Origin: Haliotis rufescens
Lineage: Eukaryota
NCBI RefSeq assembly: GCF_023055435.1
Contig: NW_025963879.1
Location: 4,092,001-4,156,000, forward strand
DNA: 64,000 nt
Direction: 5' to 3'
Positions 3,717 to 47,572 of this stretch are shown here, piece after piece. A program made the position numbers and the translations under genes. Within the stretch, counting starts at the first letter, position 1; each line of letters opens with the position of its first letter. The notes below the pieces were generated by a model that was given only the letters and a program-made list of their open reading frames with translations, did not search any database and was not told the origin of the DNA.

Positions 3717-4999
3717 CGAGGGGTGTTCATTAAAGATTTCCCCTGACCCACTTCCGATGGACCTAGTGGAATGAAACTTGGCATAGGTATTAATCTTTCT
3801 CCACATAGGAACCACCAAGAGTTACACACTTCTCTCATCGTTTTATACAACTATTGAGACCTCGCTTGTAAAAGCCCTCATTTTGCGTCTCAAACCAGGA
3901 CTTGACTTCAGAAATCAGTGTTTATCATCTGTGAAACGTTTAGCCTTCAAAAATGACTTCATTGTTGGAAAGAGGTGGAAGTCAGATGGTGCAAGGTCAG
4001 GAGAGTAAGGAGGATGTGGAAGGATTTCATAGCCACAGGACCGCGCTTCTGTCTCGGCAACATGAGAGTTGTGTACTGGAGCATTGTCTTGCAGGAGACG
4101 GACACCCTTGGTCAGCATGCCACTCCTCTTAAGCTTGATAGCGTCCCGCAATTTCCGCAGCAGTGAAGCATAATAAGCTCCTGTAATTGTGGTACCCTTT
4201 GCCAAGAAATCCATCATCACTACTCCGTGCTGGTCCCAAAACACCGTGAGCATGACCTTGCTTGCAGAGGGTTGGACACGTGCCTTCTTTGGGGGTGGTG
4301 ACTCCACATGCTTCCATTGCATCGACTGAACTTTAGTCTCAGGATCATAGTGATGGACCCATGTTTCATCCTGTGTGATAAGTCTGTCAAAAAGGTTTGC
4401 CTTTGGGGGGGGGGGGGGCACATGTCCAAATTGACTCGTTCCTGCTTTTGGAAAGGTGTGAGCAACCTGGGAATCCATCGTGCAGACACCTTATGCATGT
4501 TTAAATTGTCATGGATGATTTTTTCCACAGACCCTACACTGATCTTGACATCTTGTGCTAACTGGCGAACAGTTATACGTCGGTCTGCCAATATGGCGGT
4601 CTCCACTTGATGGATAGTGTCCTCATCAATGGCTGAATGGGGGCGACCAGGAATGGCAGCTGTTTCCACAGATGTCCGACCACACTTGAACTGGCGATGC
4701 CAGTGTTTAACAACGTCATATGATGGGGCATCTTCCCCATAAGTTGCTTTCATTTCATCGAAAGTTTCTTTTGGTGTGCGACCTTTCAAATAAAAAAACC
4801 TAATCACTGCTTGGTATTCTACTGGCTCCGTTGTCACACCCTACTCGATCATTACACCTGTAAAAGTGGTAAGATTAATAGTTCGGTGCTGGAAATTCAG
4901 ACATAACCCATAGATACACGTATCATTACGCATGTGAAATTTCAACCAAATATGATAACCCTAAGTGGTTTAGGGGAAATCTTTAATGAACACCCCTCG
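3717..4999 (-). mobile_element. Mariner (DD34D) transposon, full length, transposase frameshifted
   Basis: Perfect 28-bp TIRs CGAGGGGTGTTCATTAAAGATTTCCCCT with TA on both sides. Motifs WIPRLL, TQDETW, LQDNAPVH and YSPDLAPSDFHLF are split over ORFs 4220-4837 and 3915-4478, with the shift at the G14 run 4405-4418. Confidence 0.96.
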
Positions 5000-5500
5000 T
5001 AAAATATCTTGTGTGCGGTGGTCAGTTAGTGCATTCACTACAATTAATTTACTTTAAGAATAGTAATATTAGTTTACCGATATAGGTTGATTAATATATA
5101 TTTTCTAATAGGAATTTGGTGTTAGAAGAAAGCTATGACAAAGCCCTCGGTTTACTCTCACTTTGCCAGCAGGCTGCGGAGATTAACTTGTACGGTCCAG
5201 TGCCTTGCCAGCTATAGCCTGTTCTGATTATCTGAGCTTCTTGATGACTAAGCTGTGACCCACTGTGAGCCAAACTGAACTAGTGAAGTGAACTGTGTTC
5301 AGCTTAACAGATATGGCTTAATTATTTGATGTGAACATAAATCACTGTTTACTATACTTTTCCAAACAGACAAATTGAGCGAGTTTAAAATAACGGGTAT
5401 ATACACTGTATATATATATGGAGGTGCCATCCGCGAAATGCAATAAATGCGAAGCGGACGTAAAACCTATAAATCAGTCAGTCAGAGGTGCCATTTGAAA

Positions 5501-12257: not shown

Positions 12258-13519
12258 GGAGGCTCAACTGGGGATCTTGGTCGTGTGGAATGGTCACGCC
12301 CATGTACAGGGTGTGAAGGAGTGACGTCCATATCAAGTGGATCAAACGGATTATGAACCTTTACAGTAGGATCTAAAGGTTGGGGCACCTCCAAATGCTG
12401 GAGAGTCCTGGCCTGTTTTTTTAACTGTTTCTTTTTCTTTTTCTTTTGGTTAACTGTCTCAACTTCTTGCTCAGATGTTGGTTCAGAGGTTGGTTCAGAT
12501 GGGCCTTGTGTTGGCATTTCTGTCTGAGACGCAGATGAACTGGTCTGTGAAGGTGGTGGCATAGGTGTATCACCAAGTGTGACCCGTTGATCAGTCACCC
12601 AAGATATGTCTGTTTGACAGGAAATGGATTTTGTCGTTACCTTGGGAACGGGAACAGAAGAAAGTGCAGCAGAATATGAGACAGTAGGATTTTGACTAGG
12701 ATTGGGAAGTAATTTTTTCGCTTCAGAAAAAGAGATATTGTTTGTGTGTTTAATTTTGAGGAGTGTTGACTGATATTCAAATTTTGGGCAGGACTTTGAC
12801 GATGCCAAATGTTGTCCATCACAGTTGGCACACTTGATGTCATTGGTGCACTCAGGGTTCTCATGAGCCCCACTGCAACGAAGGCATACATTATTGCGGG
12901 TGCAGGTGTTGGCACCATGGCCAAACTGTTGGCACTTAAAACATCTGAGTGGGTTAGGGATATATACCTCAACACCAATGTTAAAGTAGCCAGCTTTTAT
13001 TGATGTTGGAATAGCAGAAAGTCTAAAGGTGAACAGATATGTATTTGTTTTGATGACATTGTTGTCCTGTTTTCTCGTGAAACTTTTCACGGAGGTAACT
13101 CCTTGATGTGTCAATGCTGCTGCAATTTCGTCTTCTGTCATGTCAGACAGACACTTCGCTCGGTCTCGAACAATTCCTCTGCAGGAGTTTAGAGATTTGT
13201 GCACTGAAACAACAACCTGGGTGTTAACAAACTGCTGGAGACCCAGCAGATTGACAGATTGTTGTCTCCGTGCACACTCGACAAGAAGTGAACCATTTCT
13301 GAGACGAGTTACATTTTTTACCTCTCCACAGACACTCTGAATGCCCTTGGAGACAGCAAAAGGATTAAGTTTGAGAGGATTTCCATCAGAAGAAGATATG
13401 ACTATAAACCTTGGCCAAGAATTAGCAACATCTTGAGAGACATCTTCATCAGATGACAAAGAGTCCACATGACGACGTTTATTGGTTTTCAATGAACCAG
13501 AATTTGGGTTTTGTGACAT
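12254..13519 (-). CDS. LINE ORF1, gag-like nucleic-acid-binding protein with zinc knuckles
   Basis: PNPLRCFKCQQFGHGANTC, CLRCSGAH and CANCDGQH..C. First in-frame ATG is at 13519. The stop overlaps the ORF2 start (ATGA). Confidence 0.93.
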   Translation of the reverse strand: MSQNPNSGSLKTNKRRHVDSLSSDEDVSQDVANSWPRFIVISSSDGNPLKLNPFAVSKGIQSVCGEVKNVTRLRNGSLLVECARRQQSVNLLGLQQFVNTQVVVSVHKSLNSCRGIVRDRAKCLSDMTEDEIAAALTHQGVTSVKSFTRKQDNNVIKTNTYLFTFRLSAIPTSIKAGYFNIGVEVYIPNPLRCFKCQQFGHGANTCTRNNVCLRCSGAHENPECTNDIKCANCDGQHLASSKSCPKFEYQSTLLKIKHTNNISFSEAKKLLPNPSQNPTVSYSAALSSVPVPKVTTKSISCQTDISWVTDQRVTLGDTPMPPPSQTSSSASQTEMPTQGPSEPTSEPTSEQEVETVNQKKKKKKQLKKQARTLQHLEVPQPLDPTVKVHNPFDPLDMDVTPSHPVHGRDHSTRPRSPVEPP

Positions 13520-21541: not shown

Positions 21542-23532
21542 ATGATTGCAGTTCTCCTGGTTGTTGTAGTGGGTGTACTGACAGTTATCTCGCTTATTTT
21601 GAAACACCTGGATGGCAGACGATATCTTCAGATTCCCGCCGCGCCTCGTCGCCTACCGTTTATTGGGAATGCCTTCAATATGGACATGTCTCAAGCACAT
21701 TTAGTATTGACAGAACTGGCGCAACAGCTTGGTCCAATATTCCGTATTAGGATTTTTAAGGAAGAAATAGTTGTTCTGAATGATTATGACACAATAACAG
21801 AGGCCCTCGTCACAAACGGACGAGACTTTGCAGGTCGTCCTCCTATGGCAAGGACCGAAGAGGCAGGTAGATCCTCCCAGTCCATCGTCTGGCAGACGTA
21901 CACCCCAAAGCTTGTATTCCTACGCAAAGAAGTACACAAGTGTCTCAAGATGTACGGGTCTGGTTTTGAGACGTTGGAGGAGAAAAGTGCTCCTGAAATA
22001 GCCCATCTGGTTGATGTCATCGAACAGACAGAAGGCCAGTCATTTGACCCATGGAATAGTGTCTATGACGCGGTATCCTGCATCATGCTTAGTTTGGTAA
22101 GAACGTGTGTGAACGACTGACGCTTGATAGAGACGTTTATAGGCCTACCTATATAGTTGTGTATGTGTTTGCAAATGTCTTTATAAAGTGAGCGCATTGT
22201 GAACTGCTTTGATTTCAGTTGCATCACACCCTGACAGATTAGTGTACGAGGGGTTAAGTGAGTGAGTGAGTAAATATTGCTTTAAGCCTCATCAGTATTG
22301 CAGCTATTGTGCGAGGGGTTTAGAGTATGAGATTCTCACGGCATGGTCAACGTCCACAATGCTGCAGACGAGGTTCGATGCCTCAGACTACAAGGCTACT
22401 CCTCGTCACAAACATTCAGCAAATGCTCGGTTTTTATGATATTACAAGTATTATCAGTTCCAAATGATGATCCTACATAATAACGTAACAGATATGTGAC
22501 ACGTCTGTCTTTCCTGTCCTTTTCAGATTCTAGGAACTTCAAACAAGTTGTCGGTCCCATGTCGACGGAAGCTGCAAGAGATTAATTTCCTTTTTAACAC
22601 AACATTCGGTTCCGGTAGTGCTCGTTGGATGGACTTACTGCCCTGGGCAAAGTTTTTCCGTTTTGAAGAACATCAAAAACTTCAGGAGGCCTTAAAACTG
22701 AGGGATGATTTCTGGACTAACGAAATAATATTGCAGGTAAGTGAGAGTACTTGGATATAATCTGTTGTCTGTTTATAATAATAAAGCGACAAAACCCTTT
22801 CCATATCCAATAGAAATCTCTGCATAAAGCAGAGTCGATTGCACGATTCCGACTATACCACGAGAATGTGTTTATAAATCACTATCAATTAGTAATGGAT
22901 GTGTAGAATTTGGTGTGAAGTTCAAGATCATTCAATGTAATTAAGCAGAACAGCTATTACTATAATGGTCCCACTGACACTGAAGAGTTGAAACACTTTA
23001 TACAGTATATGTCAATGCGTATATGAAACATGAGAGATTAAAGATCAAAGATGTTTCCAGACACGGGTATGGTGCTGACAAACCACGGATCACAATCCCT
23101 GATCCTGGCACATCTAATGGAGACATCACTGAACAGCGATTAGAAGCATTCGAACACTGTGCCACCTGTGACATTGAATACATCCACCTCATTTCCCATA
23201 GAAATCAAGATCATAATAGCAAAATCATATTAACTGTAATACTACTGATGAAACTTGTTACATAGGGTCGGGTGAAGTTATAAGGCCAACTTCTCACAAC
23301 AGTATCCGATATGGAGGTGCTCATGTATCCCATGTATTTTCATATTTTCAGGGAATATATCAAGGCGTTGTTAGAAGGATGTTATTTTTTGCCGAGAGCA
23401 AGGGTGAATCTGAATACGACATATCCGAGAACACGGCAAAAGAAGTGTTCACAAATCTGATATTAGCAGGTATGGCTCACTCTATAGCGTAAGTCCTTAA
23501 CTCTTCTCCCTTTTAGAAAGTTCCAAGAAAAC

Positions 23533-23590
<58 letters not shown>

Positions 23591-26500
23591 TGTAACAACA
23601 AGTACCATTAACGTCTTTTCGTATGATGCGGCCGTGGATCGATCGCCCGATCTTCTACGCATGCTCTCGGGGCAGACGCTCTACCATAAGACCACGGTCG
23701 CGGTCCTTTGTCTTTGAAGCCATTGAGACCTTACATATTCAGGCTATTTCACAACCATGCATACAGCCTACTTCCTATACCTCAACACGATTCGGTTAAC
23801 TGGATGAATAAGCGTAGACACACATGACCACTACAAAAGTGATGTATTCGACAAGAGTGAAGCTCCCTGTATTATTGGCTTATTAGATTTTGATAACCTT
23901 TGTCCGTGATGTCTCATTAGTTTCCATCCTCTGTGTGCTACCTCCTACTACTCTACAACTATTGAATAGGTTATCTGCTGTACTTGCAGGGACCGACACG
24001 ACCGCTACTTCTCTGACCTGTCTTCTCCTGTTCCTTCTCCATCACCCGGATGTACAGACCAAGCTGCACACTGAGTTAATGGAGGTTGTGGGGCCAGGGC
24101 GTCTGGCCAATCTGTCGGACAAACAGAACATGCCCTACACTCAGGCCACACTATGGGAACTCTTAAGGATCATTGGCCATGTGCCCCTTTCTGTTCCACA
24201 CTACACCCTCTCAGACACTAGCATACAGGGGAAACATGTTCCTGCAAATACAACAGTGAGTTCCTTGCTCATGTAACAACATACTTTTCCTGTTATAACC
24301 AACCTGACACCAGTCAGACAAGGCGACTGCCTTTGCAATTGAAGATTTTAGTTTTGTAAGTTGTTTAACGCCGCACTCAGCAACATTCCACCTATATGTT
24401 CGCGGCCTGTAAATATTCGAGTCTGGACCAGTGATTGACATCATGAGCATAGATCAACGCGATTGGGACCGATGACATGCATCAACCAAGTCAGCGTGTC
24501 TGACCACCCGATCTCGTTAGTCGCCTCTTACGACAAGGATAGTCGCCTTTTACGACAAGCATGGGTTGCTTTATAGACCTATTCTACCCGGGATCTTCAC
24601 GGGTCGCAATTGAAGAAATTAGCTAAACCGAATATGATGCAATTGAAGAAAATAGCTACACCGAATATGATTGTGTCTCCTTTACCCATTCCTGACCATG
24701 TGATTACTTTACCCATTTCTTGCCATGTATCTCCTTTACCCATTCCTTGCCATGTCTCTCCTTTACCGAATTCCTTGCCATGTGTCTCCTTCATTCCTTG
24801 CCATGTATTCCTTTTCCCATTCCTGACCATGTATCTCCTTAACCAATTCCTTGCCATGTCTCTCCTTTACCCATTCCTTGCCATGTCTCTCCTTTACCCA
24901 TCCCTTGCCATGTGTCTCCTTTACCCATAACTTGCCATGTATTCCTTTACCCATTCCTGACCATGTATCTCCTTAACCAATTCCTTGCCATGTCTCTCCT
25001 TTACCCATCCCTTGCCATGTGTCTCCTTTACCGAATTCCTTGCCATGTATTCCTTTACCCATTCCTTGCCATGTATCTCCTTTACCCATTCCTTGCCATG
25101 TATTCCTTTACCCATTCCTTGCCATGTATCTCCTTTACCCATTCCTTGCCATGTCTCTCCTTTACCCATCCCTTGCCATGTGTCTCCTTTACCCATTCCT
25201 TGCCATGTATTCCTTTACCCATTCCTGACCATGTATCTCCTTAACCAATTCCTTGCCATGTGTCTCCTTTACCGATTCCTTGCCATGTCTTTCCTTTAAC
25301 CATTCCTTGCCATGTCTTTCCTTTAACCATTCCTTGCCATGTCTCTCCTTTACCCATTCCTTGCTATGTCTCTCCTTTACCAATCCCTTGCCATGTGTCT
25401 CCTTTACCCATCCCTTGCCATATGTCTCCTTTACCCATTCTTTGCCATGTCTCTCCTTTACCCATCCCTTGCCATGTCTCTCCTTTACCCATTCTTTGAC
25501 ATGTATCTCCTTAACCCATTCCTTGCCATGTATCTCCTTTTACCATTATTTGCCATGTATCTCCTTTACCAATTTCTTGCCATGTCTCTCCTTTACCCAT
25601 TCCTTGACATGTCTCTCCTTTACCCATTCCTTGCCATTTCTCCCCTTTACCCATTCTTTGCCATGTGTCTCCTTTACCCCTTCTTTGACATGTGTCTCCT
25701 TTACCCATTTCTTCTCATGTATCTCCTTTACCCATTCCTTGCCATGTCTCTCCTTTACCCATTCTTTGACATGTATCTCCTTTACCCATTCCTCGCTATG
25801 TATCTCCTTTATCCATTCCTTGCCATGTATCTCCTTTACCCATTCCTTGCCATGTCTCTCCTTTACCCATCCCTTGCCATGTGTCTCCTTTACCCATTCC
25901 TTGCCATGTATTCCTTTACCCATTCCTGACCATGTATCTCCTTAACCAATTCCTTGCCATGTGTCTCCTTTACCCATTCCTTGCCATGTATTCCTTTACC
26001 CATTCCTTGCCATGTCTCTCCTTTACCCATTCCTTGCCATGTCTCTCCTTTACCCATTCCTTGCCATGTGTCTCCTTTACCCATCCCTTGCCATGTGTCT
26101 CCTTTACCCATCCCTTGCCATGTGTCTCCTTAACCCATTCTTTGACATGTCTCTCCTTTACCCATCCCTTGCCATGTCTCTCCTTTACCCATTCCTTGCC
26201 ATGTATCTCCTTTACCCATTATTTGCCATGTATCTCCTTTACCTATCCCTTGCCATGTATTCCTTTACCCATTCCTTGCCATGTCTCTCCTTTACCCATT
26301 CCTTGCCATGTCTCTCCTTTACCCATCCCTTGCCATGTATCTCCTTTACCCATTCTTTGACATGTATCTCCTTTACCCATTCCTTGCTATGTATCTCCTT
26401 AACCCATTCTTTGCCATGTCTCTCCTTAGCCCATTCCTTGCCTTGTATCTCCTTAACCCATTCTTTGCCATGTCTCTCCTTTACCCATTCCTTGCCAAGT

Positions 26501-29124
26501 GTCTCCTTTACCCATTCCTTGCCAAGTGTCTCCTTTACCCATCTTTGCCATGTGTCTCCTTTACCTATTCCGTGCCATGTGACTCCTTAACCCATTCCTT
26601 GCCATGTCTCTCCTTTACCAATTCCTTGCCATGTGTCTCCTTTACCCATTCCTTGCCATGTGTCTCCTTTACCCATTCCGTGCCATGTGTCTCCTTTACC
26701 CATCCCTTGCCATGTGTCTCCTTTACCCATCCCTTGCCATGTCTCTCCTTTACCCATTCCTTGCCATGTGTCTCCTTTACCCATTCCTTGCCAAGTGTCT
26801 CCTTTACCCATTCCTTGCCAAGTGTCTCCTTTACCCATCTTTGCCATGTGTCTCCTTTACCTATTCCGTGCCATGTGACTCCTTAACCCATTCCTTGCCA
26901 TGTCTCTCCTTTACCAATTCCTTGCCATGTGTCTCCTTTACCCATTCCTTGCCATGTGTCTCCTTTACCCATTCCGTGCCATGTGTCTCCTTTACCCATC
27001 CCTTGCCATGTGTCTCCTTTACCCATCCCTTGCCATGTGTCTCCTTTACCCATTCCTTGCCATGTATTCCTTTACCCATTCCTGACCATGTATCTCCTTA
27101 ACCAATTCCTTGCTATGTGTCTCCTTTACCCATTCCTTGCCATGTCTTTCCTTTAACCATTCCTTGCCATGTGTCTCCTTTACCAATTCCTTGCCATGTC
27201 TCTCCTTTACCCATTCCGTGCCATGTGTCTCCTTTACCCATCTTTGCCATGTATCTCCTTAACCAATTCCTTGCCATGTGTCTCCTTTACCCATTCCTTG
27301 CCATGTCTTTCCTTTAACCATTCCTTGCCATGTCTCTCCTTTACCCATTCCTTGCCAGGTCTCTCCTTTACCCATTCCTTGCCATGTGTCTCCTTTACTC
27401 ATCCCTTGCCATGTGTCTCCTTTACACATTCCTTGCCATATGTCTCCTTTACCCATTCCTGACCATGTATCTCCTTAACCAATTCCTTGCCATGTCTCTC
27501 CTTTACCCATCCCTTGCCATGTGTCTCCTTTACCCATTCCTTGCCATGTATTCCTTTACCCATTCCTTGCCATGTATCTCCTTTACCCATTCCTTGCCAT
27601 GTATTCCTTTACCCATTCCTTGCCATGTATCTCCTTTACCCATTCCTTGCCATGTCTCTCCTTTACCCATCCCTTGCCATGTGTCTCCTTTACCCATTCC
27701 TTGCCATGTATTCCTTTACCCATTCCTGACCATGTATCTCCTTAACCAATTCCTTGCCATGTGTCTCCTTTACCCATTCCTTGCCATGTCTTTCCTTTAA
27801 CCATTCCTTGCCATGTCTCTCCTTTACTCATTCCTTGCCATGTCTCTCCTTTACCCATTCCTTGCCATGTGTCTCCTTTACCCATCCCTTGCCATGTGTC
27901 TCCTTTACCCATCCCTTGCCATATGTCTCCTTTACCCATTCTTTGCCATGTCTCTCCTTTACCCATCCCTTGCCATGTCTCTCCTTTACCCATTCCTTGC
28001 CATGTGTCTCCTTTACCCATTCCTTGCCATGTGTCTCCTTTACCCATCCCTTGCCATGTGTCTTCTTAACCCATTCCTTGTTATCAAAGGTGCTTAAAAC
28101 CGGGTTTCATTTTTAAAATGAGTGATCACCACGAAGACCAACTCTCGGTGGTGACAAAGTATAATATTACGCCTTGGCAGTCTGGTGGTAGGTCTTTGTT
28201 ATCCATAACCTTTGTTATCCGGTGTCATGGTTTTACACATGTTTTCACGTGTCTGTCATATTGAAAAATGCGGTTCGCTTCCTGACTCACCTAATTTGTG
28301 CTGAAGGTATACATTAACCTATGGGCCCTGCTACATGACGCCACCTTCTGGGAGAGTCCGTGGGAGTTCCGCCCTGAGAGGTTCCTAGACAGTACCCATA
28401 GACTCCTGCCACCTAGTCACCCATCCAGACGCAGGTAATTTGCTTGTGTGTTTCATCGTCCTATGTATTCCTGCGGATGGAACTCTGATAGCCATCGAAT
28501 GTTCTGCCTAGCATGATCAGCATAATGGCTCCGATATTTGACGATCTGTTCACTTGATCCCTGTGGGGAATCTGGTGCAGGTTCCCAGGGTTCCATACTA
28601 TCGGGACCAATTACGAGATGAGGTTGATTGTGCCCGTTAATGAAGCTATGAAATAATTCAAAATTCACAAAAGTTCCTGTGACATTGAATAAGATTTAAT
28701 GCAAAGTTATGTTTTTACCCTTTTCACGAACGCCTGGTGTCAGCACTGATTTTCAGTGATCCATTCATATAATCTTTCACCCCTATTTTGCCCATTTATA
28801 CTAAATATTGGTAAGAAGTTTGCATTCAGTATGGATGGAAAGGAATGGATGCCAGATTGGGTGCGTGTGTTCTGTATGTTTTTGTGTTTTCTTTACTTCA
28901 GAATGTTGGCATTTGGGGCTGGTCGCAGGGTTTGTCTAGGAGAGGCAATGGCCAAGAACAGACTCTTCTTGTTCGTGACAGCGTTGATCCAGAACTTCCA
29001 GTTTGAGCCAGTAGAGGGCGAGTCCTTACCAGATGCCGACCCTCGGACCTTTGAGATGGGGCTTGTGCTTCACCCTCACAAGTTCAAGTTGTGTGCTAAG
29101 TCAAGACGTTCCTCGCCCCTATAA
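21542..29124 (+). CDS. Cytochrome P450, clan 2 (CYP17/CYP21/CYP1-like), 6 coding exons, 499 aa
   Basis: Exons 21542-22096, 22527-22736, 23352-23469, 23990-24255, 28307-28434 and 28902-29124. All introns are GT-AG with consistent phases, total 1500 nt. N-terminal TM anchor, LPFIGN, FAGRP, I-helix AGTDTT, ELLR, PERF, heme motif [10 protein letters not shown]. Confidence 0.95.
23537..23705 (-). mobile_element. Truncated tRNA-derived SINE (Meta-domain type) with (CA)n tail, in CYP intron 3
   Basis: Reverse complement matches 57938-58050 (..CATACGAAAAGACGTTAATGGTACTTGTTG). Confidence 0.65.
24346..24605 (-). mobile_element. Bipartite non-autonomous non-LTR retroposon, copy 2, in CYP intron 4
   Basis: 11-bp TSD GCAATTGAAGA (24335-24345 and 24606-24616). 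Homologous to 2715-2977. Confidence 0.85.
24672..28082. repeat. 27-bp minisatellite array (~3.4 kb) in CYP intron 4
   Basis: Unit CCCATTCCTTGCCATGTGTCTCCTTTA with 25/26-bp variants. It accounts for all the repetitive ORFs in this region. Confidence 0.98.
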
Positions 29125-33400: not shown

Positions 33401-34336
33401 AAATATTATGTTATTTTAATTAACAATACATTTATACCACTTTATATGAAGTGCAGTTATTTTTTTCTGCTAGTATATGAAGACTAACACAGTCTCTGTG
33501 GAATCTCAGCAAAATATAAAAATGCTCAGATGTAGCTTGGGACCAGGACCGAATGCGTCATTCAATGAGAAATGCTTGTACCTGCTCGTTGCAGATTCAT
33601 TTGATTCATTTGATTCATTCTGTGATACTTTGGAAATATACCCTCTTTTCTCAAATTCAGAGATTACCTGCCTGGGTAAAGCATTTGTCTTTGTTAAACA
33701 TTGTTTCAGTGCTGACAAGTCTTTGGAATGCCATGTCATGGTTATATGGCACCTCATTTCCATGGTAATCCTTCCTAGTAACGATTCTTCCTAAACACTA
33801 GTTGTTGCGCAGTGGAACTGAATATTTGAGCGCGGTTTAACTTAAAATGAAAACTAATCTAAAATTTGTATGACTAACCTTTTTTGAATGAAACCAGGAA
33901 CTAAACGTGATAACCTATTAAAAACTATGAAGATCTATAAGGAACTAAACGTGATTACCTGTTATTATGTGAAGGAAAGATGAATAAACCTCAAATGAAA
34001 GAAATTAAATGCTAATTCTAACAGTTACTCATAAGAGAGTCTTAACACTGTCTAACGCCATGTCTAACGCCATGTCTAACACCATCTGTCTAACCATCTC
34101 TGACCATCTCTGACCATCTAACTAACGAACTCTCTAACGAACTCTGACCAACTAACTAACCGATGCGCGCTACCGCCTTATATTTGCTCACAACCCTCAC
34201 ATTTCACGTGCAGTCACAGCCATACTTTGGTGTGTTCAGGCGATGCGATCGTTATGCATCGGGTGCGTTTTGGAGAACAGATTCTTTATTTAAAACTAAC
34301 ACGAGTGCACGTGAAGCGCGATCTATAGGCTCCGGG

Positions 34337-36097
34337 AGTTCGGTCTTGACTGCCGTCGAGTTCGGACATCTTTTGCTTCTCAGCAACTTGTCTAGTGTTA
34401 TACAGCACACTTGACTGTTTATGATACTTCCTCTTTGGTTCTTTTGGCTTTTGATTTCTCTTGTGTTGGAGTGCATTCAACCTTTTCATTTCTATTTGGT
34501 GTTTGCTGATTGTTACAGTCAGTTGTTGGGGATTGTCCTCGACAATGGCTGACAACAGAATGGAATGTGAGGAAGGATTTAAAGTGGTGGCTTCAGGGAG
34601 GAAGCGAATCGGCCGTATTCCAGATGGTACTTCTAAAAAAGCCTGTGTTGCCAAGCAACCAAATACTGTCCCTCCTACTGCAAGGTCTGATCTTACTTTT
34701 GTCTTTGATGAGCCAGCGCGGGTCAAATCAACCACTGTTATCTTCAAAGCCGATGTAGATGAATATGATGATGGTTCACCGACCCTCTGTCAACTTATGA
34801 CACAGCGTGCTTTGGCTAGAGCCTTGGCTAAGATCACTACAGAAATAGTCAGTGTTAAGCGGATGGCCAGGGGAGATGTTAGTGTCACTGCAAAAACCGT
34901 TGAGGCTGCCAAAACACTTTTGCAAGTCACAGAACTTGATGAACATTTTGTCACCCCTCATGAGCCTGAATCCTTAATGAGAACACGTGGAGTCATCTAT
35001 GGTATTGATCTGGATATTGAGATGAATGAAATTGAGGACGAGTTGAAACCTGTGTTACCTCTAATGTGCTCTGCTGTGCGTCTGACTCGTGGGCCTGATA
35101 AAGTTCCCACCAAATCTGTTCTTCTTACATTTACTGGCCAGTCTTTACCGGATCATGTTGTCATTTTCTTCCAGAGATTTCCAATCCGGATATATGTTCC
35201 TCCTGCTCTTCGATGCTTCAAGTGTCAGTCCTTTGGGCATGTCTCTGCTAAGTGTAGAAGCACTCATCATGTGTGCGCTAAATGTGGAGGGAAGCACAAA
35301 TACGAGGAGTGCAATGAAAGTTCCCTTAAATGTAAGAACTGTGGTGGTGCACACTCTGCGGCATATAAAGGTTGCATTAAATACCAGGAAGCTGTCCAGA
35401 TTCAGAAAGTCCGAGTGGAGGGTAAGTTGTCTTATTCTCAGGCTGTTCGACAGGTGCGTGGAGATTTTGATGTCGCTCAGGTTCCAGCAGTCCCTAAACC
35501 ACCTCCTGCAGCTAAACCACTGTCTCAGGTTGTTACAATTTTAGATGTTGTGTCTTCTCCAGTCATGGTGTCTGCTAGTACTCAGACTGAGACTCTTGAA
35601 GTTGAATGTCAGACTGATCCTGTTGTTGACATCATGCCTGAATCATCTTGCAAACCTCTATTTAACAATGTCTCTCCTGTTGACTTTCTCAACTTTGTTA
35701 TTTGTATAGTTGCTAATCTTGGCACTACTCGTGCATTCAAGTCTGATGGTCTTCAGACGATAGCGTCAGCTGCCCAGTCCCTCTTGGGGTTAAGATTGTC
35801 CCCTGATGATCTGACGAGCATGGTTAAGGGTCAACAATGGAAGTCTTAATCCATCCTTCTTATGGATCTCTTGATGCTAGATCACTCAGTGCTAACGGTC
35901 CAGGATTTAAAGTTTGTATTAAGTTTTGACCCAGATGTTTTGTCTTCAGGAGACATTCTTAACTCCTAACCTAAAGCGTGTGGCAGTTTCAATACTATAT
36001 GAACTATCTAGGTACTTAGCAAACCTTTATTATGGGCAAGGTGTACATGGGCCTAGTTGCCCGAACACCTATAAAACTTTCTAAAAAAAATCAATCA
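34337..36097 (+). mobile_element. ORF1-only non-autonomous non-LTR element inserted in the BEL LTR
   Basis: 16-bp TSD ATCTATAGGCTCCGGG (34321-34336 and 36098-36113), 3' hairpin and A8(TCAA)n tail. Only a decayed stub of ORF2 remains. Confidence 0.92.
34545..35849 (+). CDS. LINE ORF1-type gag-like zinc-knuckle protein (434 aa)
   Basis: YVPPALRCFKCQSFGHVSAKC, CAKCGGKH..C, CKNCGGAHSAAYKGC. Open frame starting at ACAATGG. Confidence 0.9.
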   Translation: MADNRMECEEGFKVVASGRKRIGRIPDGTSKKACVAKQPNTVPPTARSDLTFVFDEPARVKSTTVIFKADVDEYDDGSPTLCQLMTQRALARALAKITTEIVSVKRMARGDVSVTAKTVEAAKTLLQVTELDEHFVTPHEPESLMRTRGVIYGIDLDIEMNEIEDELKPVLPLMCSAVRLTRGPDKVPTKSVLLTFTGQSLPDHVVIFFQRFPIRIYVPPALRCFKCQSFGHVSAKCRSTHHVCAKCGGKHKYEECNESSLKCKNCGGAHSAAYKGCIKYQEAVQIQKVRVEGKLSYSQAVRQVRGDFDVAQVPAVPKPPPAAKPLSQVVTILDVVSSPVMVSASTQTETLEVECQTDPVVDIMPESSCKPLFNNVSPVDFLNFVICIVANLGTTRAFKSDGLQTIASAAQSLLGLRLSPDDLTSMVKGQQWKS

Positions 36098-36248
36098 ATC
36101 TATAGGCTCCGGGTGCGTTTTAGAGCTCAGTTTTAATGAATAGACATGTCTATCATGAAAACCGACTAAACTTAGAAGAAACTGAAAGGAAACTGAATCT
36201 ATGAGTATGTACATTTGTTGCTGTTATCCAATTTGACAATTTCAGAAC

Positions 36249-39186
36249 TCAACTCCATTCAAGAGGGCAGACCTTCGTGATAGGTCTTTTCAAGACTGTT
36301 TTGCCAACTTTAACATCAAGAACACGTACGTGATCATCCTTTCCAGGATACCTTTTGAGAACTCTGCCAAGAGGCCAAACTCCACGAGGAGTATCTGGAG
36401 ATACCACAATGATCCATGCCGACACTCTACACAATCTCTTCCAACTTGAAAATCTAGATGGCGCTAATCTCCAAGAGATTGGATCAGACTTAGTAAACAT
36501 GGCGATGTTTATTTGAGAAGGCTTCTTCAGTTCTGATGTCTCAGTATTGTCCATGTCAATGGTCTGCTTCGGCCATTCGGTTTCATCATGTGTCACAAAT
36601 TCAGGTCCATTCAGCCATTTCTGTGTCAAAAGTGCTTCAGCGTCTACACCTCTACTAAGAATGTCTGCAGCATTCAGTTTGGATGGTACGTATTTCCACT
36701 GACTGATGTTTGTATGCTCCTGTATGAATCCAATCCTATTTGCTACAAATGGCTTAAAACATCGACTCCGTCTTTTGATCCACCACAGTACGTTCTGGCT
36801 GTCTGACCATAGCGTTGCACGCTGCAAAGGTAATTCTAATGCCTTTGTTATAGCCAGTAACAGTCGTACACCCAGAACTGCCGCAAGCAGCTCCAATCGA
36901 GGCATACTAACTGCCTTGAGGGGAGCAACATGGCACTTGGAAGCAACTAAATAACTACACTTCGTGTCATCTTCACGAGTGGTTACTAAATATACCACAG
37001 CTCCAAATGCTGCCTCTGAAGCATCTACAAATGTGTGTAACTTCATCTTTGAAGTATCTAAGCTAACCTCAAGCCCCCTTGGGATTTTAACAGAACACAA
37101 CTTTTCAATTTCAAGATACCAAGACCATGCTTTTTGTTCCAGATCTGGACTGAGGGTTTCATCCCAGTTAACACCGGATATCCACATTTCTTGCAGAAGA
37201 ACCCTTGCCCTAATGATGAATGGACCTAAGAACCCAAGAGGATCAAACAGCTTAGCAGTTTCTTTCAAGAAGTTCCTCTTAGTCATCTTGATATCATGCT
37301 TTAAGGACATGAAAGAAAATCTAAACTCATCTGATTCTGCATTCCACAGTAAGCCCAGTGCTTTAACAGATGGCAATTCACTCATTTGAATATTAATCTC
37401 TTTCAATCTATCCTCTTCTGGTATTTCTTGGAGAACTTGCACGGAATTGGAAACCCACTTACGAGCGTGCATACCTGCTGTACTCCACAGCTGTTGCAGC
37501 TGTTTGTAAAGCTCTATAGCTTTGCTATTTGTGTCAACGGAATCCATATTGTCATCCATATATGTTGACTTTTCCACGGTTGCTGCAGCCAATGGAAGTT
37601 CTTTCTCCATGGACTTAGCATGTTCTTGAGTGATATACTGAGCTAAAAAGGGGGAACAATTTAGTCAAAACACAACCTTTGAGAACTCAAATACATCTGA
37701 CTTTTTGTTCCAATCCATAGACCTCCAAAGAAATCTTAGATACGGACGGTCATCCTGAGCGACTTCAATTTGAAGGTACATTTCAGCAATATCGCAAATG
37801 ATTGCAACAGGATGTTTGCGAAAACGAAGCAAGATCTCAAATAGATCATTCTGGAGTTTTGGTCCTTGATGAATGACATCATTTAAAGATATGCCTTTAT
37901 TCTTTGCAGATGCGTCAAATACGATTCTCACCTTTGTTGTACTTCTGTCTGGTTTAATGACTGGAAAAGGTGGTAAGTACCATTTACTTTGATCTATTTC
38001 TGTTTCAGGTACTTTTCTGATATAACCATTTTCAGGTATTGTTCTATGACTTCATTGTAGGCTCCTGAAATCGTTTGATCCTTTGACAACTTCTTTTCTA
38101 AATTAAGAAGACGATTGTATGCCATGTCATAATTGTTTTTCTGATTCTCGTGACCCTCCTTCCATGGAATGCCAACCTGATATTTGTCTGTTCTACAGTC
38201 TTAACTGCATCATTCTCATCCATGCTTCTAATCGATGTCAAACCTGAAATGCTTTCAGACTCCCAAAATGAGTGAATCAAAGACTCAATATCTGTATCTG
38301 CGATCGCTTCTATTTCTGTATTTCTGATGAAGAAGGAACCTGCTCCATGTGTTGTTTTGTCTGAACCTGATACAGCATCAACACAGGTCCAACCTAAGGG
38401 TGTCAACCGAGCCACAGGCTCTCCTTGAGCTCCACGGACCTCTTTAAGAGAGGAATGCAGCTCTAAATAATCCATACCTAACAGGATGTCAACTCTTGGA
38501 CGAGAACTTACCTTTGGAAATTTTATTTTCGTCAAATGTGGCCATTCCTTGGCATGTTTTCGCCAATCAATGACTTCCATTCTACCTGTTAATTTGGTAG
38601 TTGTCAAAGCTGTGATGTTTATGTCAACTGAACCATCAGTACTTTCTAAGCCGATATCAATTAGCATACTATCAAATATTTCCTGTTTGTCATTGAGGAC
38701 ATTGACTGACACTTGCTGTGTCTGACCTTGAACGCCAAGTTCTGCTGCTACATCCTCGTTGATGTAAGTATACGTGCTGGCATCATCCAGCAAGGCATTA
38801 ACCATCATTCTGTGCTGACCATTCTTAAGGATAACAGGAACTGTCCTAAGTGCAAGGTAATGACCTTCCTGCTTAGAAGTTGCCATGGTGATTGTTTCTG
38901 ACCTACCTGCTTGTGGTGTTCTTGTTGTGTGTTTCATCTCTACATTACCACTGTCGGCCCTAGCACTGCTTGTAACTTTGGTTTGATCATGAAGTAACCT
39001 GTTATGATTTGCTTTACAGCCATCAATCCCACATTTCAAAACTCTGCTACACGATCTTCCCAGATGACCGATATCAAGGCAACGAAAGCATAAATCTAAC
39101 TGTTTTGCCCTTTCCCAGCGTTTAGGTAGGTCAATAGATTTCAACTCTATGCAATCTGAAGTGTCATGATCTGCTTCATGACACAC
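36249..39186 (-). pseudogene. BEL/Pao pol remnants (Zn knuckle, aspartic protease, RT, RNase H; integrase core deleted)
   Basis: CFRCLDIGH, ALLDDAS, RIVFDAS, DIAEMYLQ, YMDD, FDPLG, HTFVDAS, PRLELLAA, NAADILSRG, then directly WPLGRV..KRPITKVCPLE. Confidence 0.9.
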
Positions 39187-39278
39187 ATGACATTGCCTTG
39201 CCCTAGTTTTATTATGTGTGATTGCAAATGTTCCTTTCTTAGAACTATCTCTCTTGTCTGTTGTCTTTGACCTATCAG

Positions 39279-40568
39279 CTATTCCATGTTTAATCCTGAA
39301 GCTATCGTTTGGAACTCTGCTTCTTGCAGAATATATTCCATAAGCGTCTCAACAGACTCTTGTCTTTGGTGCTCAAATAACCATCTGTGGAACTGAGTAA
39401 TCATAGGCTCATTCATTTTCTTAACCAGTAGTGAATACAAACATCCACTACCAAGTTCCTCTATTTTATCAGATTCCCTCAGACTGACTACAGCTACATC
39501 AAGCATGTCCGCAAATTTGTCCATATCCTTAGCATTCCCTAATCGTATTGGCTTGAAATTGTATATTTCTTCCAATTGTAATGCTACCTGGCGTCTCTTG
39601 CCGCCATATTTTCTGTCCAATCTCTCCAAGGCTACATCATAGACCGAAGCACTGTGACTTAGCCTTGCAACTATGTGTGCTGCTTCTCCAGACAGGTACT
39701 GCTTCAATTGCAGAAGTTTATATTCATTGGTGGCTGGAGCTTTATCAACACATACCATGAAAGCAGACTTCCAGCCTTCATATTCTCTGACATCGCCAGA
39801 AAATACTGGAATGGAAACTCTCTTCAATTGATTCCACATGTCTTCACCTAAATTGTGTTGCCTAGATGACTGATCTGAAGTTGTATAACAACCTTTTGTG
39901 TTATCTGGGACTGGTGTCCGTTTCATATCCATATTTGACCTTTGTTGAAAATGGCCTAAATTGAACGAAGCATGTTTGTAACCTTGGTTACTGATTTGTC
40001 CAGTGCCATCACTGTCCAAGTCTGCATCATGCAACAAACCTTTACAGCTATCTTGCGACCGATTCGCATCAACTTGACATGACCTTAACATTTCTGACTG
40101 AATGCTTTTTGCGTCCGAACTAACATGTGATCTGTTCTTAAGAAATGCTTCAGCCTTATCAAGGGCAAGTTCAATTTCATCTTCAACAGTTTCTATCTCC
40201 TTACTAGTTTTCTGAACTTTCTCTAGGTAACCAGCCCAGTTGTAAGCTTCCAGATATTCCACTATGAGACCTATAGCCTTGCTCTGCAGAAAACTTACCT
40301 GATCAATTAGACTCCTAATTGTCTTACGATCTGGTGCCTCAAGTTCAACTAAATTCAGCAATTTGTTCTTTGATTTTGTCAAAGCTGACTTTGAAATAGT
40401 TTTCTGATGCTTAAGTTTAGCTATCTTTAGCTCAAGTTCAGAAGTGTTCTGTTTAAGTCCTACGTCTGAAGAAGCGTACTGTTTCAGCACTACGTCTGAA
40501 GAAGTATCCTTTTCTATTTCCGCCTTACTCGCAGACCCTAACTGTGACATACTGCTTGCATGTAACAA
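39279..40568 (-). pseudogene. BEL/Pao gag region (DUF1759-like)
   Basis: LKRVSIPVFSGDVREYEGWKSAF..KLLQLKQYLSGEA..ERLDRKYG. Frameshifted relative to the downstream ORFs. Confidence 0.85.
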
Positions 40569-43500
40569 TTAGCTATACCTAATGCTAATCTAAACTAACA
40601 AAAGCCTAATACAAAACTAAAATATTCTAACCAGAGAAACCACGCTCTGCTACCAAATGTTGCGCAGTGGAACTGAATATTTGAGCGTGGTTTAACTTAA
40701 AATGAAAACTAATCTAAAATTTGTATGACTTACCTTTTTTGAATGAAACCAGGAACTAAACGTGATAACCTATTAAAAAACTATGAAGATCTATAAGGAA
40801 CTAAACGTGATTACCTGTTATTATGTGAAGGAAAGATGAATAAACCTCAAATGAAAGAAATTAAATGCTAATTCTAACAGTTACTCCTAAGGGAGTCTTA
40901 ACACTGTCTAACGCTATGTCTAACGCCATCTGTCTAACCATCTCTGACCATCTAACTAACGAACTCTCTAACGAATTCTGACCAACTAACTAACCGATGC
41001 GTGCTACCGCCTTATATTTGCTCACAACCCTCACATTTCACGTGCAGTCACAGCCATACTTTGGTGTGTTCAGGCGATGCGATCGTTATGCATCGGGTGC
41101 GTTTTGGAGAACAGATTCTTTATTTAAAACTAACACGAGTGCACGTGAAGCGCGATCTATAGGCTCCGGGTGCGTTTTGGAGCTCATTTCTAATGAACAG
41201 ACATGTCTTCAGAACACTAGTAATCCATGTGCTTTCTCTAGCGATCATTTCTCATTTGTACTCAGAATTAGTTTAGGATTATTTACTTCCTGAATCTCCC
41301 AAACGGTTCTCACTGGTGAAGATACCTTGGCATTAATACCTTGTGTATGATATACATATAAACAATGCATTTGTAAACTAAACTAAATGGTCTATAATGA
41401 TAATACAAGTCCACCCATGAGGAGTCCTTTCAGCAATTGGATCACCATAGGATCAAACGACTGGTGAAGCTGTATGTAATCAATTTCTATCAAGAGATTT
41501 ACTTGTGGATTCTATCCAACAACTTGGAAATGATACCATACATTGGCAGACCAGGCAGAGAGGATTGATCAGCTTGGGCTTATTTGATAAAACCAGCTGA
41601 CAATATTCTTGACAATCTTGTCTACTGTACAATACATCACACAGAATGGTTATCTCATTTGTTTGTCAAGGTTAACTTACTCACATCACCTCCTCCATGG
41701 GTTGGTCATATTATCACAAACACACATTTTTTCCATTTTGGGGAATCAAACTTCCAAAACCCCTTATCAATATCTGACAACAATGTTTGTGAAATAATTT
41801 ACATGTAACAGTTTGAGTGAGTACAAGCAAACAAATACAACATATTCACATTACATCCTTTACTATTGTTACCCAATATCTGTATTTTGTATTTTGTTCA
41901 AAGTCAAGAGTACCCTGGACTGTTTTTCGATACTGGTATATAATTGTTTTTACATAAAGTAACTGTTAATTACTTTAATAATGTGTTTCATGAACACAAA
42001 GCCCATACCTTACATGCCTGCCTTAAACTAGAAAATACATGCAACAGTAGTGACCTTCATGTGTATTGAAAATAATGAACTCTTGGCAGAAGCTGCATAA
42101 TGTCCTCACCATGTTTAAAGGTACATCTATCGCCTCAGTCAGCAGTATTTGTTTACTACATAAACACAGAAGTACAAAACATGACATCATGTAGATTCAG
42201 TGTTTCACTCAACCATGAAAGTGTCTGTAGTGTCAACACTATTCCATTGATCCAACACTTGCTGTGCCAGCGACAGCAATATTTACCATTCCCATTTATT
42301 TATAACATAAATGTTATGTATTCCTTGAATGAAATAAATTAAATACGATGACAACACGAAAGATATTTTGTTCTTGCACAACAATACGCATCTACCAATA
42401 ATATATTCTCCTGGTCATATATGGCTTCTTGGCTGAGAGAAACACTGAGAGTTTATTCATTTCAAAGAATGTCCTTCAAATAACAAGTTCATAGTCAATT
42501 TACTTCTGACAAATACATGGCAAAACAAATAATACAGAAGTCCTGTACAATTCAATAGAATGAAATCTAACTGAACATGAAATGAACGATGATGTATCTG
42601 GTCACACTTTACAATAATCCCATCTTGGAATAATACATACAATACTGAGACCTACTTGTCCCCATCCATACCCCTGCCCACACACACACACTTTCCCACA
42701 CCCACACCCACACCCACACACACACACACACACACACAGAGTGTTATTACCAAATACACAAAAAGCTGTACATAAACTGTGGGAAATTTGCCAACTTTTC
42801 AATATACATATTGGTAAATGGCAAACAAAAGCACATCAGCATCAATATGTGCCTTGCAGGAAACATTTGACAAGCAGGAACTATACGGCCATGAGAGGTC
42901 TCTCTGCTTTCATGAATGCTTTCAATCAGATGAAACTGACTATATTCAAAATTAATATGCATACCTATTGTATATGACTGAACACAGGAATACTGACATA
43001 ATCATGACAATAAAACTCTCTAGCAATTTTGATTGAATATCAGGGATGTTTACCAGAACTTTAATGATAATACTTAGAAAGGAGCATAGACTTATTTTTA
43101 AAAACTATATTCTGATATCGCTGAGAAGGCTCCACCATCTAGTAAACATATTTCAGAGCTGAGCACAATCATAACTATCCTTGAAAACAGTGTCCGATTT
43201 ACAGTTCCTTACAAATAGTCAAAAATCATTTTGGTGGTCCAGGTTGACGTGCTTACTGCAAACAATCACCCCTGGTGCAGCGGTGATTTAGCATAACAGC
43301 ACTGAAACAGGCTCATTTGCTTATCATGTGACTGCACTATTCTCTTGTTTGTAAACAAATGCTCTTATTCTGAAATCAGTACAGACTGGCCTAAGGCAAG
43401 ACTTTCAGAGCGTATTTCATATTGTTTAGCATAATTATATAGATATGCTACTACAACTGCAACAGTGAGGTGCATGACAATATATCTTTATACATCAAAG

Positions 43501-45236: not shown

Positions 45237-47234
45237 CTACTCCACTTGTGCTACATATTGTATAACCCCTTGGCTGTTGATCTCTGCATACTGGACCCGT
45301 GCTACAATGGGCACTCCGTCGACAGTAGAGAATATTTGTGTCTCTCCTTGATTCTCATCAGCACACACTGCAGCTATGTTAGCCACTGTTTGAAGTGTTG
45401 CCTGAGTCATTATATCAGCACCTGCAACAACCGCATTCTCCTCTTCGTGGTAGTCGGATATCCTGTGTTTCTTGGTAGGAGGCTCACCAAGACTGTGCTG
45501 CTTTAACATATGTTCCTTGAGTTTATCATACCGTGTTGTTGAGAAGTTGCACTGTTCACAGCTGTGTGGTCGGTCATCTGAATGTAACAGCATATGCCTC
45601 TTCATGTTCTTTATAAGAGAAAAGCTGTGACCACATATCTCACACTGGTGGGGCTTTTCATGAGTGTGAGTAAGCATGTGGTATTTCAAATTCTGTCGTT
45701 TTGTTGCTTCAAAGCCACATCCTTCAAAGTCACATTTAAACGTCTCTCCTGTATGGATCAATCTGTGAGCTTTCAGTTGACTTTTATGTGCTGTTGCAAA
45801 CCCACAAATATCACATAAGTGATCCTTTGTAACACTGTGAGTGATCATGTGGTTTTTTAAGGCATGTTTCCATTTGAACCCTGCTGCACACAAACTGCAA
45901 ACAAACGGTTTATCCTCTCTGTGTTTTGGTAAGTGTGTATTTAACTGGGTTCTACTTTTAAATTTGATATCACAGAACTTGCAAAAATATGGTGTTGGAC
46001 CGTCATGTTTAACTAAATGCGCTTTAAAATCTTCTTCTGATTCTGCCTTGTAGTCACAAAAACTACAGATGTTCTCAGCATGAAGATGTTTCTTCTTGTG
46101 TTCAGCCAGGACTTTTACACGTTTGGCTTTAAAATCACATTTGTCACATGTATAATTTCTCCCTTTTGACATGAAATTAGCATCATCTTCTTTCTTTTCC
46201 TCATTGTCTTCATTTTCTTCAGCACCTTTGTTTTCACAGTTCCTTGATTCTTTTTCAATCTTGATTACCTTATTTGCACTTCTCCGTGCCCTTTTCAGTG
46301 GATGCATGATGAAATCAGATCTGAATCGAGGACCTCTACTATTTCTCAGACGAGCACTAGTCCTGGTAGATGTGAGGTATGAGGTGATTGGCCTCTTTCC
46401 ACGGGTTCTCCTCATTGTACTCTGATTGTTTTCATTCTCATCTATATCTTCTTCCACACCTTCAGCGGTTTCTTCATTGTTTTGATCTGTGTCATTTTGA
46501 CTTTCTCTCTCTTTTTCTGCATCCTCTTCATCAGCCATGAGACTAATGAAGGCAGAAAAGTCATCATCAGACTCCTCTTCTTTTTTACTTTTTCGAGGTC
46601 TACCTCTTCCCCGTTTCTTTGCCTGTTTTATGCTACGTTCAACTTTGATTTCATTTGACCTTGCAGTGGCTGCTGGTTGCAATACTATTGCATCTCTAAT
46701 TTCAGTCTTGATATCATTAGCATTGTTTGCAATAGTAGAGGTTCCAACATCCACTTTAGAATACTTAAAACTTGTATCATTGGCAGGAATTACCTTGTGC
46801 CCCCTAAATCCACTTTGGAAATGTTCACAAAAGTTTGTCAGGTGTTCCATTTGCATTATCTTCGATATCTCGAGGACTTGAGTAAGGATCCGAAGGTTAA
46901 GACAGATGTTGCTTGTGTACATAAAGTCAACCACTTTTCTAACAGCTTCTCCATATCCACTGTCTCCATCACTGCCATCTATGTGAATTTCAATGACCTG
47001 AGGAGTTTTTTGAGAAAATGCACGCGGCAGGTCTTGTCCCTGTCCCAGAAAAGATCCAAAATATGGACTTGCTGCGGCCAAAACGTTAGAATGGGCAAAT
47101 ATTTCTTCCCCACAAACACGGAGCAATACATCACAAAATCGAGATGCCGTCCTTTGATCGTGTAATGCTTTTAAAATTCCTTCAAGTCGGTGTTTATCAA
47201 CGAGGGACGCACTATCTTCTACAAGCGTCGCCAT
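45237..47234 (-). CDS. BTB/POZ + AT-hook + 8 C2H2 zinc-finger transcription factor (ZBTB24-like architecture), single coding exon, 665 aa
   Basis: FCDVLLRV..AHSNVLAAASPYF (BTB), KRGRGRPRK (AT-hook), eight C2H2 fingers. Start AAAATGG (MATLVEDS) is preferred over the upstream ATG. Confidence 0.93.
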   Translation of the reverse strand: MATLVEDSASLVDKHRLEGILKALHDQRTASRFCDVLLRVCGEEIFAHSNVLAAASPYFGSFLGQGQDLPRAFSQKTPQVIEIHIDGSDGDSGYGEAVRKVVDFMYTSNICLNLRILTQVLEISKIMQMEHLTNFCEHFQSGFRGHKVIPANDTSFKYSKVDVGTSTIANNANDIKTEIRDAIVLQPAATARSNEIKVERSIKQAKKRGRGRPRKSKKEEESDDDFSAFISLMADEEDAEKERESQNDTDQNNEETAEGVEEDIDENENNQSTMRRTRGKRPITSYLTSTRTSARLRNSRGPRFRSDFIMHPLKRARRSANKVIKIEKESRNCENKGAEENEDNEEKKEDDANFMSKGRNYTCDKCDFKAKRVKVLAEHKKKHLHAENICSFCDYKAESEEDFKAHLVKHDGPTPYFCKFCDIKFKSRTQLNTHLPKHREDKPFVCSLCAAGFKWKHALKNHMITHSVTKDHLCDICGFATAHKSQLKAHRLIHTGETFKCDFEGCGFEATKRQNLKYHMLTHTHEKPHQCEICGHSFSLIKNMKRHMLLHSDDRPHSCEQCNFSTTRYDKLKEHMLKQHSLGEPPTKKHRISDYHEEENAVVAGADIMTQATLQTVANIAAVCADENQGETQIFSTVDGVPIVARVQYAEINSQGVIQYVAQVE

Positions 47235-47572
47235 TTTGAAGGGAGGGAACGTTCTTAAAATTTGATTGGAGAAAATTATACCACTGATGACGTGAGAGCA
47301 TGTAACTGAATGATTATGGATGTATATTAAATTTGTATTTAACGATGGTGGATGATAGGTGTGCACGTTAGTATTTTTTGAGCAAATATTATTATCAAAA
47401 GACATCTAAATAGGAACGGAATGGTCCCTTATATTTCTGCGGACCGACCGGAAGTTTGGGTTCGCGATTGACAAGTCCAATATCATCGTGATCTAAACAG
47501 GACAATACAGAAGTTACCTTATAGCTGATAACTGTTTGGTTTCAAGTATGTGGGAATTTTGAGTATGCCAAT
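47235..47572. promoter_or_regulatory. Putative bidirectional promoter
   Basis: 338 bp between divergent ATGs. ETS site CCGGAAGT at 47448-47455, TGACGT CRE-like site at ~47288, ATTGG box at ~47265, YY1-like AAAATGGCG over the ZBTB start. Confidence 0.7.

Follow-up and report, generated by a model that had tools for sequence, protein, structure and literature searches.

The window, a 64,000-nucleotide stretch of the Haliotis rufescens genome (contig NW_025963879.1 of assembly GCF_023055435.1), contains a retrotransposon insert in a BEL/Pao element on the minus strand, whose 3' LTR it interrupts near the U3 end (Table 1). The insert comprises a 5' UTR, an open ORF1, a remnant of an ORF2 endonuclease and a 3' region ending in a short repeat tail, and the other LTR of the same host element retains the corresponding empty site. 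Elsewhere, the window harbors a second, unrelated I-group LINE, ORFs resembling a mariner-type transposase, a skewed tandem array and three host-like ORFs.

Table 1. Features of the insert, its BEL/Pao host element and the remainder of the window.
Feature	Position	Strand	Remarks
Mariner-type transposase pieces	3915-4753	-	Two overlapping ORFs, resemblance judged by eye
Second I-group LINE, unrelated	8580-13519	-	Both ORFs open (421 aa, 1225 aa; endonuclease, RT, RNase H)
Cytochrome P450-like exon	21542-22120	+	Host-like ORF, judged by eye
CT-rich tandem array	24500-28100		Strongly skewed, long repetitive ORFs
BEL/Pao host element	33803-41208	-	LTRs 94% alike, coding region in several pieces
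3' LTR of BEL/Pao host	33803-36151	-	Interrupted by the insert
Short tandem repeats	34040-34160		Inside the BEL/Pao LTR
CACGTG in host LTR	34205-34210	+	-132 from the insert
GCGTTT in host LTR	34265-34270	+	-72 from the insert
Direct repeat, left TSD copy	34321-34336	+	16 bp, ATCTATAGGCTCCGGG
Insert (form B copy)	34337-36097	+	1761 bp
5' UTR	34337-34544	+	Begins AGTTC
Predicted 5'-terminal RNA hairpin	34338-34367	+	104-nt fold, z -1.9; 3' arm includes GGAC
DPE-like motif GGACA	34364-34368	+	+28 to +32
ORF1	34545-35849	+	434 aa, open
ORF2 endonuclease stub	35837-35971	+	Frameshifted
Form B deletion junction	35971-35972	+	268 bp shorter than form A, ~3.6 kb shorter than parent
Last ORF2 codons, 3' UTR and (AATC)n tail	35972-36097	+	Common to parent
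3' stem-loop	36039-36070	+	Inside 58-nt conserved block
Direct repeat, right TSD copy	36098-36113	+	16 bp, ATCTATAGGCTCCGGG
5' LTR of BEL/Pao host	40658-41208	-	With empty site
Empty site	41155-41170		In the 5' LTR of the host
BTB/zinc-finger protein	45237-47405	-	Host-like ORF, judged by eye
PX-domain protein	60514-61239	+	Host-like ORF, judged by eye

The preliminary description of this locus had proposed an ORF1-only "half-LINE" that transposed as a unit and had an Inr/DPE-like internal promoter, and most of its anatomy was borne out: the ORF1 frame is intact, the endonuclease stub contains the motifs DARSLSANG, DPDV and LQETFL (distributed over three different reading frames), and the predicted fold agrees with the proposed 3' hairpin, the stability of which is ordinary (z -1.6; 13 of 200 shuffles fold equally well). 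The insert length and the 16-bp repeat were likewise recovered, but the true target-site duplication (TSD) is probably only 12-13 bp, given the overlap between its first ATC and the (AATC)n tail and a possibly untemplated terminal G. A 13-bp TSD flanks a sister insertion at the same LTR site.

A genome search in which 40 of 222 candidates were scored returned many near-full-length copies, and the family comprises three forms: a 5.45-kb parent LINE, form A of ~2030 bp, and the 1761-bp form B present in the window. Form A joins parent position 1964 to position 5318, in frame and across a 4-bp TTAA overlap, which rules out splicing as the origin of this junction. Form B lacks a further 268 bp without any overlap at its junction and carries A-type changes in the stub and tail; judged by these shared changes, it is a secondary deletion nested in form A. 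The ORF1-only unit is real, but the window copy represents this second deletion rather than the commoner form A. Junction patterns matched 29 form A and 7 form B copies, and alignment added five form A copies (L020, L049, L062, L071 and L075), giving at least 34 of form A and 41 deleted copies in all, 34 of them 5'-complete and 7 truncated. Six of the seven truncated copies (including L055-L059) constitute a decayed form A cluster within 0.4 Mb on one contig (C46) and probably go back to a single old insertion that was duplicated locally. All 45 matches to the 5' end were retrieved and comprise 29 deleted copies, 14 parents (one classed by position only) and 2 unclassified copies. Among 58 further 3' ends, drawn from 100 listed among 130 matches, 3 are deleted, 7 are too short to call and 48 are 5'-truncated parent-type. 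Many of these 48 belong to an older subfamily (L061-L117), which combines a different tail with the same 3' hairpin and is represented by truncated copies only.

TSDs differ between copies, with a family mode of 12-13 bp (18 of 25 automatic calls; the automatic calls for L014 and L018 are probably wrong). As the preliminary description had anticipated, many independently retrotransposed copies share one deletion junction and have different TSDs, excluding a one-off deletion in a single copy. DNA-level duplication, or carriage by the host LTR element, is a highly improbable source of these copies: some pairs do have common flanks (L032/L043, L040/L047 and L031/L053, besides the six decayed copies on C46), but the differing TSDs and flanks refute duplication for most copies. 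The flanks of L001 and L004 are 89-92% alike versus 99% for the elements themselves, and the empty second LTR of the host element in the window argues against carriage.

The common 3' end led, as predicted, to a parent element, a co-resident I-group LINE with ~90% identity to the derivative in the same genome; the derivative keeps both ends of this LINE and has its ORF2 deleted. Parent copy L032 and its duplicate L043 contain an open ORF2 of 1279 codons encoding endonuclease, RT and RNase H, located behind a broken ORF1, and no parent with both ORFs intact was found among the parents retrieved. An ORF1 of at least 420 aa is present in 6 of 7 form B copies, 12 of 24 form A copies and 1 of 13 parents. 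Recent parent activity is evident from the truncated copy L118, which is 99% identical to L032. This young copy lies tail-to-tail with the form B copy L005, ~120 bp away at the same LTR end (G000:C290). The second LINE in the window was ruled out as the partner, with only 36% (ORF2) and 26% (ORF1) identity and another 3' end.

The parent encodes ORF1 followed by an ORF2 with endonuclease, RT and RNase H, the last of which is a trait of the I group. Named best matches of its RT/RNase H are fish, arthropod and mollusc proteins at 41-56% identity. The TSD mode agrees with the range of 10-15 bp, peaking at 12-13 bp, given for Nimb-2_DR of the Nimb clade in the available text of PMC4245944. Domain order, TSD length and fish homologues together indicate that the parent is likely an I-group LINE of the Nimb clade. 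An origin as HAL1 proper, from the L1 clade, was rejected, as the parent possesses RNase H, a C-terminal zinc-finger-like motif and an (AATC)n tail; animal L1 elements lack RNase H and end in poly(A).

Domains predicted for the ORF1 protein (ORF1p) are two of the RRM type, three zinc knuckles and, at the C-terminus, a three-helix domain. A comparison of the C-terminus with the ESM Atlas gave no usable match. ORF1p is 98% identical to proteins labelled Haliotis rufescens at NCBI, and at least eight near-identical products are annotated as uncharacterised host proteins; the protein belongs to an ordinary large family of 14,996 representatives. Selection was assessed in an alignment of 30 deleted copies and 13 parents, from which the rearranged L044 was left out. 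Common variants were those present in at least 3 of 28 main-clade copies, absent from the basal deleted copies L039 and L041 and present in at most 1 of 13 parents; these counts, taken from existing copies, exclude variants of sampled parents but not those of unsampled ones. Common variants in ORF1 comprise 13 synonymous and 11 non-synonymous changes (omega 0.27, binomial p=0.0014), compared with 6 and 20 in the ORF2 stub (omega 1.03; ORF1 versus stub, p=0.04), and private variants in ORF1 comprise 49 and 138 (omega 0.89). Every shared frameshifting deletion in the coding sequence maps to the stub, and ORF1 has none. The dN/dS check on ORF1 proposed in the preliminary description thus came out as expected, and the counts, a signal of 24 changes, support purifying selection on ORF1 after the deletion alongside neutral decay of the stub. 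This maintenance of ORF1 after ORF2 loss carries the caveat that recombination with the parent could bring in already-selected ORF1 sequence.

Phylogenetic analyses provide evidence of such recombination. In the stub tree, 24 form A copies constitute one clade (100/100), whereas the tree of the 5' UTR and ORF1 rejects a single clade for the 30 deleted copies (AU p=5e-5). In L028, the first ~1.4 kb are of parent type and the remainder is of deleted type, the switch falling near the end of ORF1; L005, L016 and L021 have a common short 5' patch at parent-diagnostic sites; and the first ~170 nt of the window copy carry a haplotype other than that of its form B sisters. On the evidence of these alignments, the half containing the promoter and ORF1 has repeatedly been swapped with parent copies. 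Template switching between co-packaged RNAs is the likely cause of the mosaics, with gene conversion as an alternative. A 122-bp extra segment in L028 was considered as a scar of template switching and rejected, as it is a SINE with its own TSD. Since the copies are young and recombination re-imports functional parent ORF1, ORF1 might instead be a mere passenger in a short element. The discordant trees and the parent-type 5' patches of the four mosaic copies would fit this explanation, as would the placement of ~13 of 26 shared stub changes, and hardly any ORF1 changes, at the base of the main clade. However, within-clade ORF1 changes absent from the sampled parents favor synonymous sites (13/291 versus 11/924), within-clade stub changes (13/303, by hand count) accumulate at about the rate of ORF1 synonymous sites, and the fact that recombinants which acquired a fresh ORF1 have succeeded repeatedly is in itself suggestive of selection for ORF1, leaving the passenger explanation improbable. 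ORF1 has accordingly been kept both by selection and by re-import.

At the 3' end, the 58-nt block containing the stem-loop differs between the window copy and parent L032 at only 1 of 58 positions, versus 7 of 47 just upstream, which is consistent with recognition by the parent ORF2 protein (ORF2p). Because the derivative lacks an RT but has fresh TSDs and a conserved 3' block, it has presumably been moved in trans by parent ORF2p. No run labelled RNA was listed for the element; contigs of presumed-RNA runs cover ORF1 and the form A stub, each deletion junction appears in one unlabelled sequencing run, and one small-RNA run contains 6 reads. A reciprocal arrangement has also been considered, in which the short element acts as a partial helper, supplying ORF1p in trans to parents with a dead ORF1 and an open ORF2, so that the two complement each other. 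The location of the only open ORF2 found (L032/L043) behind a broken ORF1 and the open ORF1 of 18 deleted copies would suit such an exchange, but one assembly misses polymorphic intact parents, and ORF1p of TRE5-A worked poorly in trans in the available text of PMC3159450; mutual complementation accordingly seems rather unlikely.

The preliminary description placed GGACA at the downstream promoter element (DPE) position of an element starting with AGTTC. Both features are present, but GGACA is private to the window copy, and 40 of 45 5'-complete copies read GGACG at +28 to +32. With GGACGT at +28, the abalone family matches the first six letters of RGACGTGY, the downstream motif of Drosophila LINEs, at the expected place (as given in the available part of PMC2377424). 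A five-letter DPE pattern at one fixed place has a chance expectation of ~0.017. A G directly precedes the start in 41 of 45 5'-complete copies, with 0-2 extra G between TSD and start, and the extra G is likely derived from an mRNA cap. From its position and composition, the Inr/DPE-like motif is a candidate internal promoter. Alternatively, GGAC at +28 may owe its retention not to a DPE role but to an RNA hairpin at the 5' terminus, of which it would be the 3' arm, given that GTTC at +2 to +5 pairs with GGAC at +28 to +31 in the predicted fold. The weak fold score and the agreement with the Drosophila motif make this the less likely option, and a search of Rfam gave no match at E<=1 and recognised no ribozyme. 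The two roles are nevertheless mutually compatible.

The flanks of independent copies match each other, revealing a preference for the starts of other transposons. The BEL/Pao LTR family of the window (40 genome matches) received 4 insertions, a second LTR family (35 matches) 2 and a Tc1 family (500 matches) 3, against an expectation of 1e-4 to 1e-3 insertions per host family under the assumption of a 150-bp oriented window. In each of the three host families, the LINE lies near the host 5' end and points away from the host coding strand. Pfam scans within 1.5 kb upstream covered all 93 ORFs of at least 75 aa at 27 loci and the two longest ORFs per strand at 20 loci (45 distinct loci). Of the 45 loci, 12 have transposon domains on the divergent strand (8 Tc1/HTH, 2 BEL gag, 1 endonuclease and 1 mid-RT fragment), and none has them on the same strand. 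The Tc1 hosts struck, in the upstream flanks of L003 and L010, have fully open transposase frames of 352 and 343 aa, compared with 0 of 5 unhit copies inspected, hinting that active Tc1 copies are preferred as targets. In the head-to-tail dimers L012/L018 and L016/L021, one copy (L012 and L016, respectively) inserted directly at, or immediately ahead of, an older copy's 5' end.

In an unbiased 6-mer scan of the 250 bp upstream, the top-ranking word was GCGTTT (21 of 45 versus 40 of 1018 background windows, p=3e-16), followed by CACGTG-type words. With windows picked after seeing the data, either motif occurs 50-200 bp away in 29 of 47 full-length copies, versus 115 of 2036 background windows; removal of repeated hosts leaves 20 of 38, so that roughly half of the full-length copies carry neither motif. 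Motifs accompany 7 of 15 parents and 20 of 30 deleted forms, versus 6 of 54 truncated copies. Insertion facing the 5' end of a target at a preferred position and orientation, as in TRE5-type elements, thus characterizes about half of the full-length copies, and this positional and oriented bias is common to parent and derivative. No cut-site (TSD) consensus, no TATA enrichment on either strand and no tRNA gene in 49 loci were found. Tx1-clade LINEs insert into other transposons at one target sequence, and Tf1 of fission yeast is an LTR element that inserts beside Pol II promoters; the abalone family differs from the former in lacking a cut-site consensus and using several unrelated hosts, and from the latter in not being an LTR element.

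Tethering by ORF1p or a host factor is a likely mechanism for this bias. Germline chromatin that is accessible at active transposon promoters could produce it as well, as could the loss of full-length insertions from other sites, in keeping with the lack of a cut-site consensus, the spread of distances over ~50-200 bp and the scarcity of motifs in truncated copies, an outcome not expected from simple targeting at the first nick; truncated copies do nonetheless show divergent transposon domains at 6 of 53 loci versus a single same-strand case (one self-hit discounted). Such passive causes accord poorly with the strict orientation, as GCGTTT occurs upstream 21 times versus 3 for its reverse complement and a mirrored test gives 2 of 37, in line with the one-sided distribution of domains. 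Furthermore, 20 of 26 GCGTTT matches lie within 50-100 bp, the distance is similar for insertions just inside and just outside LTR ends (L011, L005), and the same bond was struck by three insertions in one LTR family and by two in Tc1. Chromatin or removal is consequently a serious but less probable explanation than tethering. A more specific and tentative version of tethering holds that ORF1p docks on a factor at a GCGTTT/E-box module of BEL/Pao, Tc1 and LINE starts, placing full-length copies head-to-head 50-200 bp away, where the bare core promoter would use the host's germline activators; ORF1 would then be kept and re-captured as an aiming device.

ORF1-only LINEs are known from HAL1 (L1 clade), HeT-A (Jockey) and Ag-Sponge (CR1), as listed in the available text of PMC5786205 and PMC5753468. 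Like these, the abalone derivative keeps the two ends of an autonomous LINE, has ORF1 as its sole product and has been amplified as a unit; unlike them, it descends from an RNase H-bearing I-group LINE, a clade absent from that list in the text available, its parent is co-resident and continues to trade 5' halves with the derivative, and the derivative exists in two nested deletion forms. The Dictyostelium element TRE5-A.2 is an ORF2-deleted element with a cis-preferring ORF1, moved in trans and targeted head-to-head, and TRE5-A provides experimental precedent for ORF1 cis preference combined with ORF2 acting in trans (available text of PMC3159450). The abalone family resembles TRE5-A.2 in its retained ORF1, deleted ORF2, structured 3' end and oriented insertion with the 5' end toward the target, making TRE5-A.2, by analogy, the closest working model. 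However, TRE5-A relies on TFIIIB/C to insert ~50 bp ahead of tRNA genes (PMC3159450, text available), whereas the abalone targets are the 5' ends of unrelated transposons over a wider window. Zebrafish Nimb-2_DR of the Nimb clade shares the ORF1/ORF2 structure and TSD range, but neither an ORF1-only form nor a target preference is described for it in the available part of PMC4245944. Internal-deletion derivatives of R2 have been described (PMC3414825, text available), and Nimbus is recorded in gastropods with no non-autonomous form mentioned in the available text of PMC11203168. The literature searched contained no ORF1-only Nimb element or such targeting, although subscription papers, Repbase entries and bioRxiv supplements may hold such families.

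Collectively, the junction-sharing copies, the selection on ORF1 and the I-group parent support the reading of the insert as a member of an ORF1-only half-LINE family, an I-group analogue of HAL1, with a probability of roughly 0.9. The fuller mechanism, in which a young ORF1-only I-group derivative combines its own promoter, self-made ORF1p, borrowed ORF2p and oriented targeting, is also probable, with somewhat lower confidence. One in-frame deletion generated form A and a second, 268-bp deletion form B. Pol II would start at the first A and yield a capped transcript from the element's own 5' end, and self-made ORF1p would coat its own RNA, with a cis preference as in TRE5-A. Parent endonuclease and RT would be borrowed in trans via the conserved 3' stem-loop. 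Insertion is biased to positions head-to-head with the starts of other transposons and would be guided by proteins bound there. Owing to its short length, the derivative nearly always inserts whole, with its promoter and ORF1 retained, and this is a likely reason for its excess over the parent among 5'-complete copies.

As ORF1-only LINEs are already known, the oriented targeting is the more interesting part of this system, and the re-import of ORF1 adds to its interest. A young parent/derivative pair in one genome makes the question of why half-LINEs keep ORF1 testable, and recombination with the parent represents a second route of ORF1 maintenance beside measurable selection. The oriented, non-sequence-specific preference points to a promoter module common to several transposon classes and to a safe-haven strategy.
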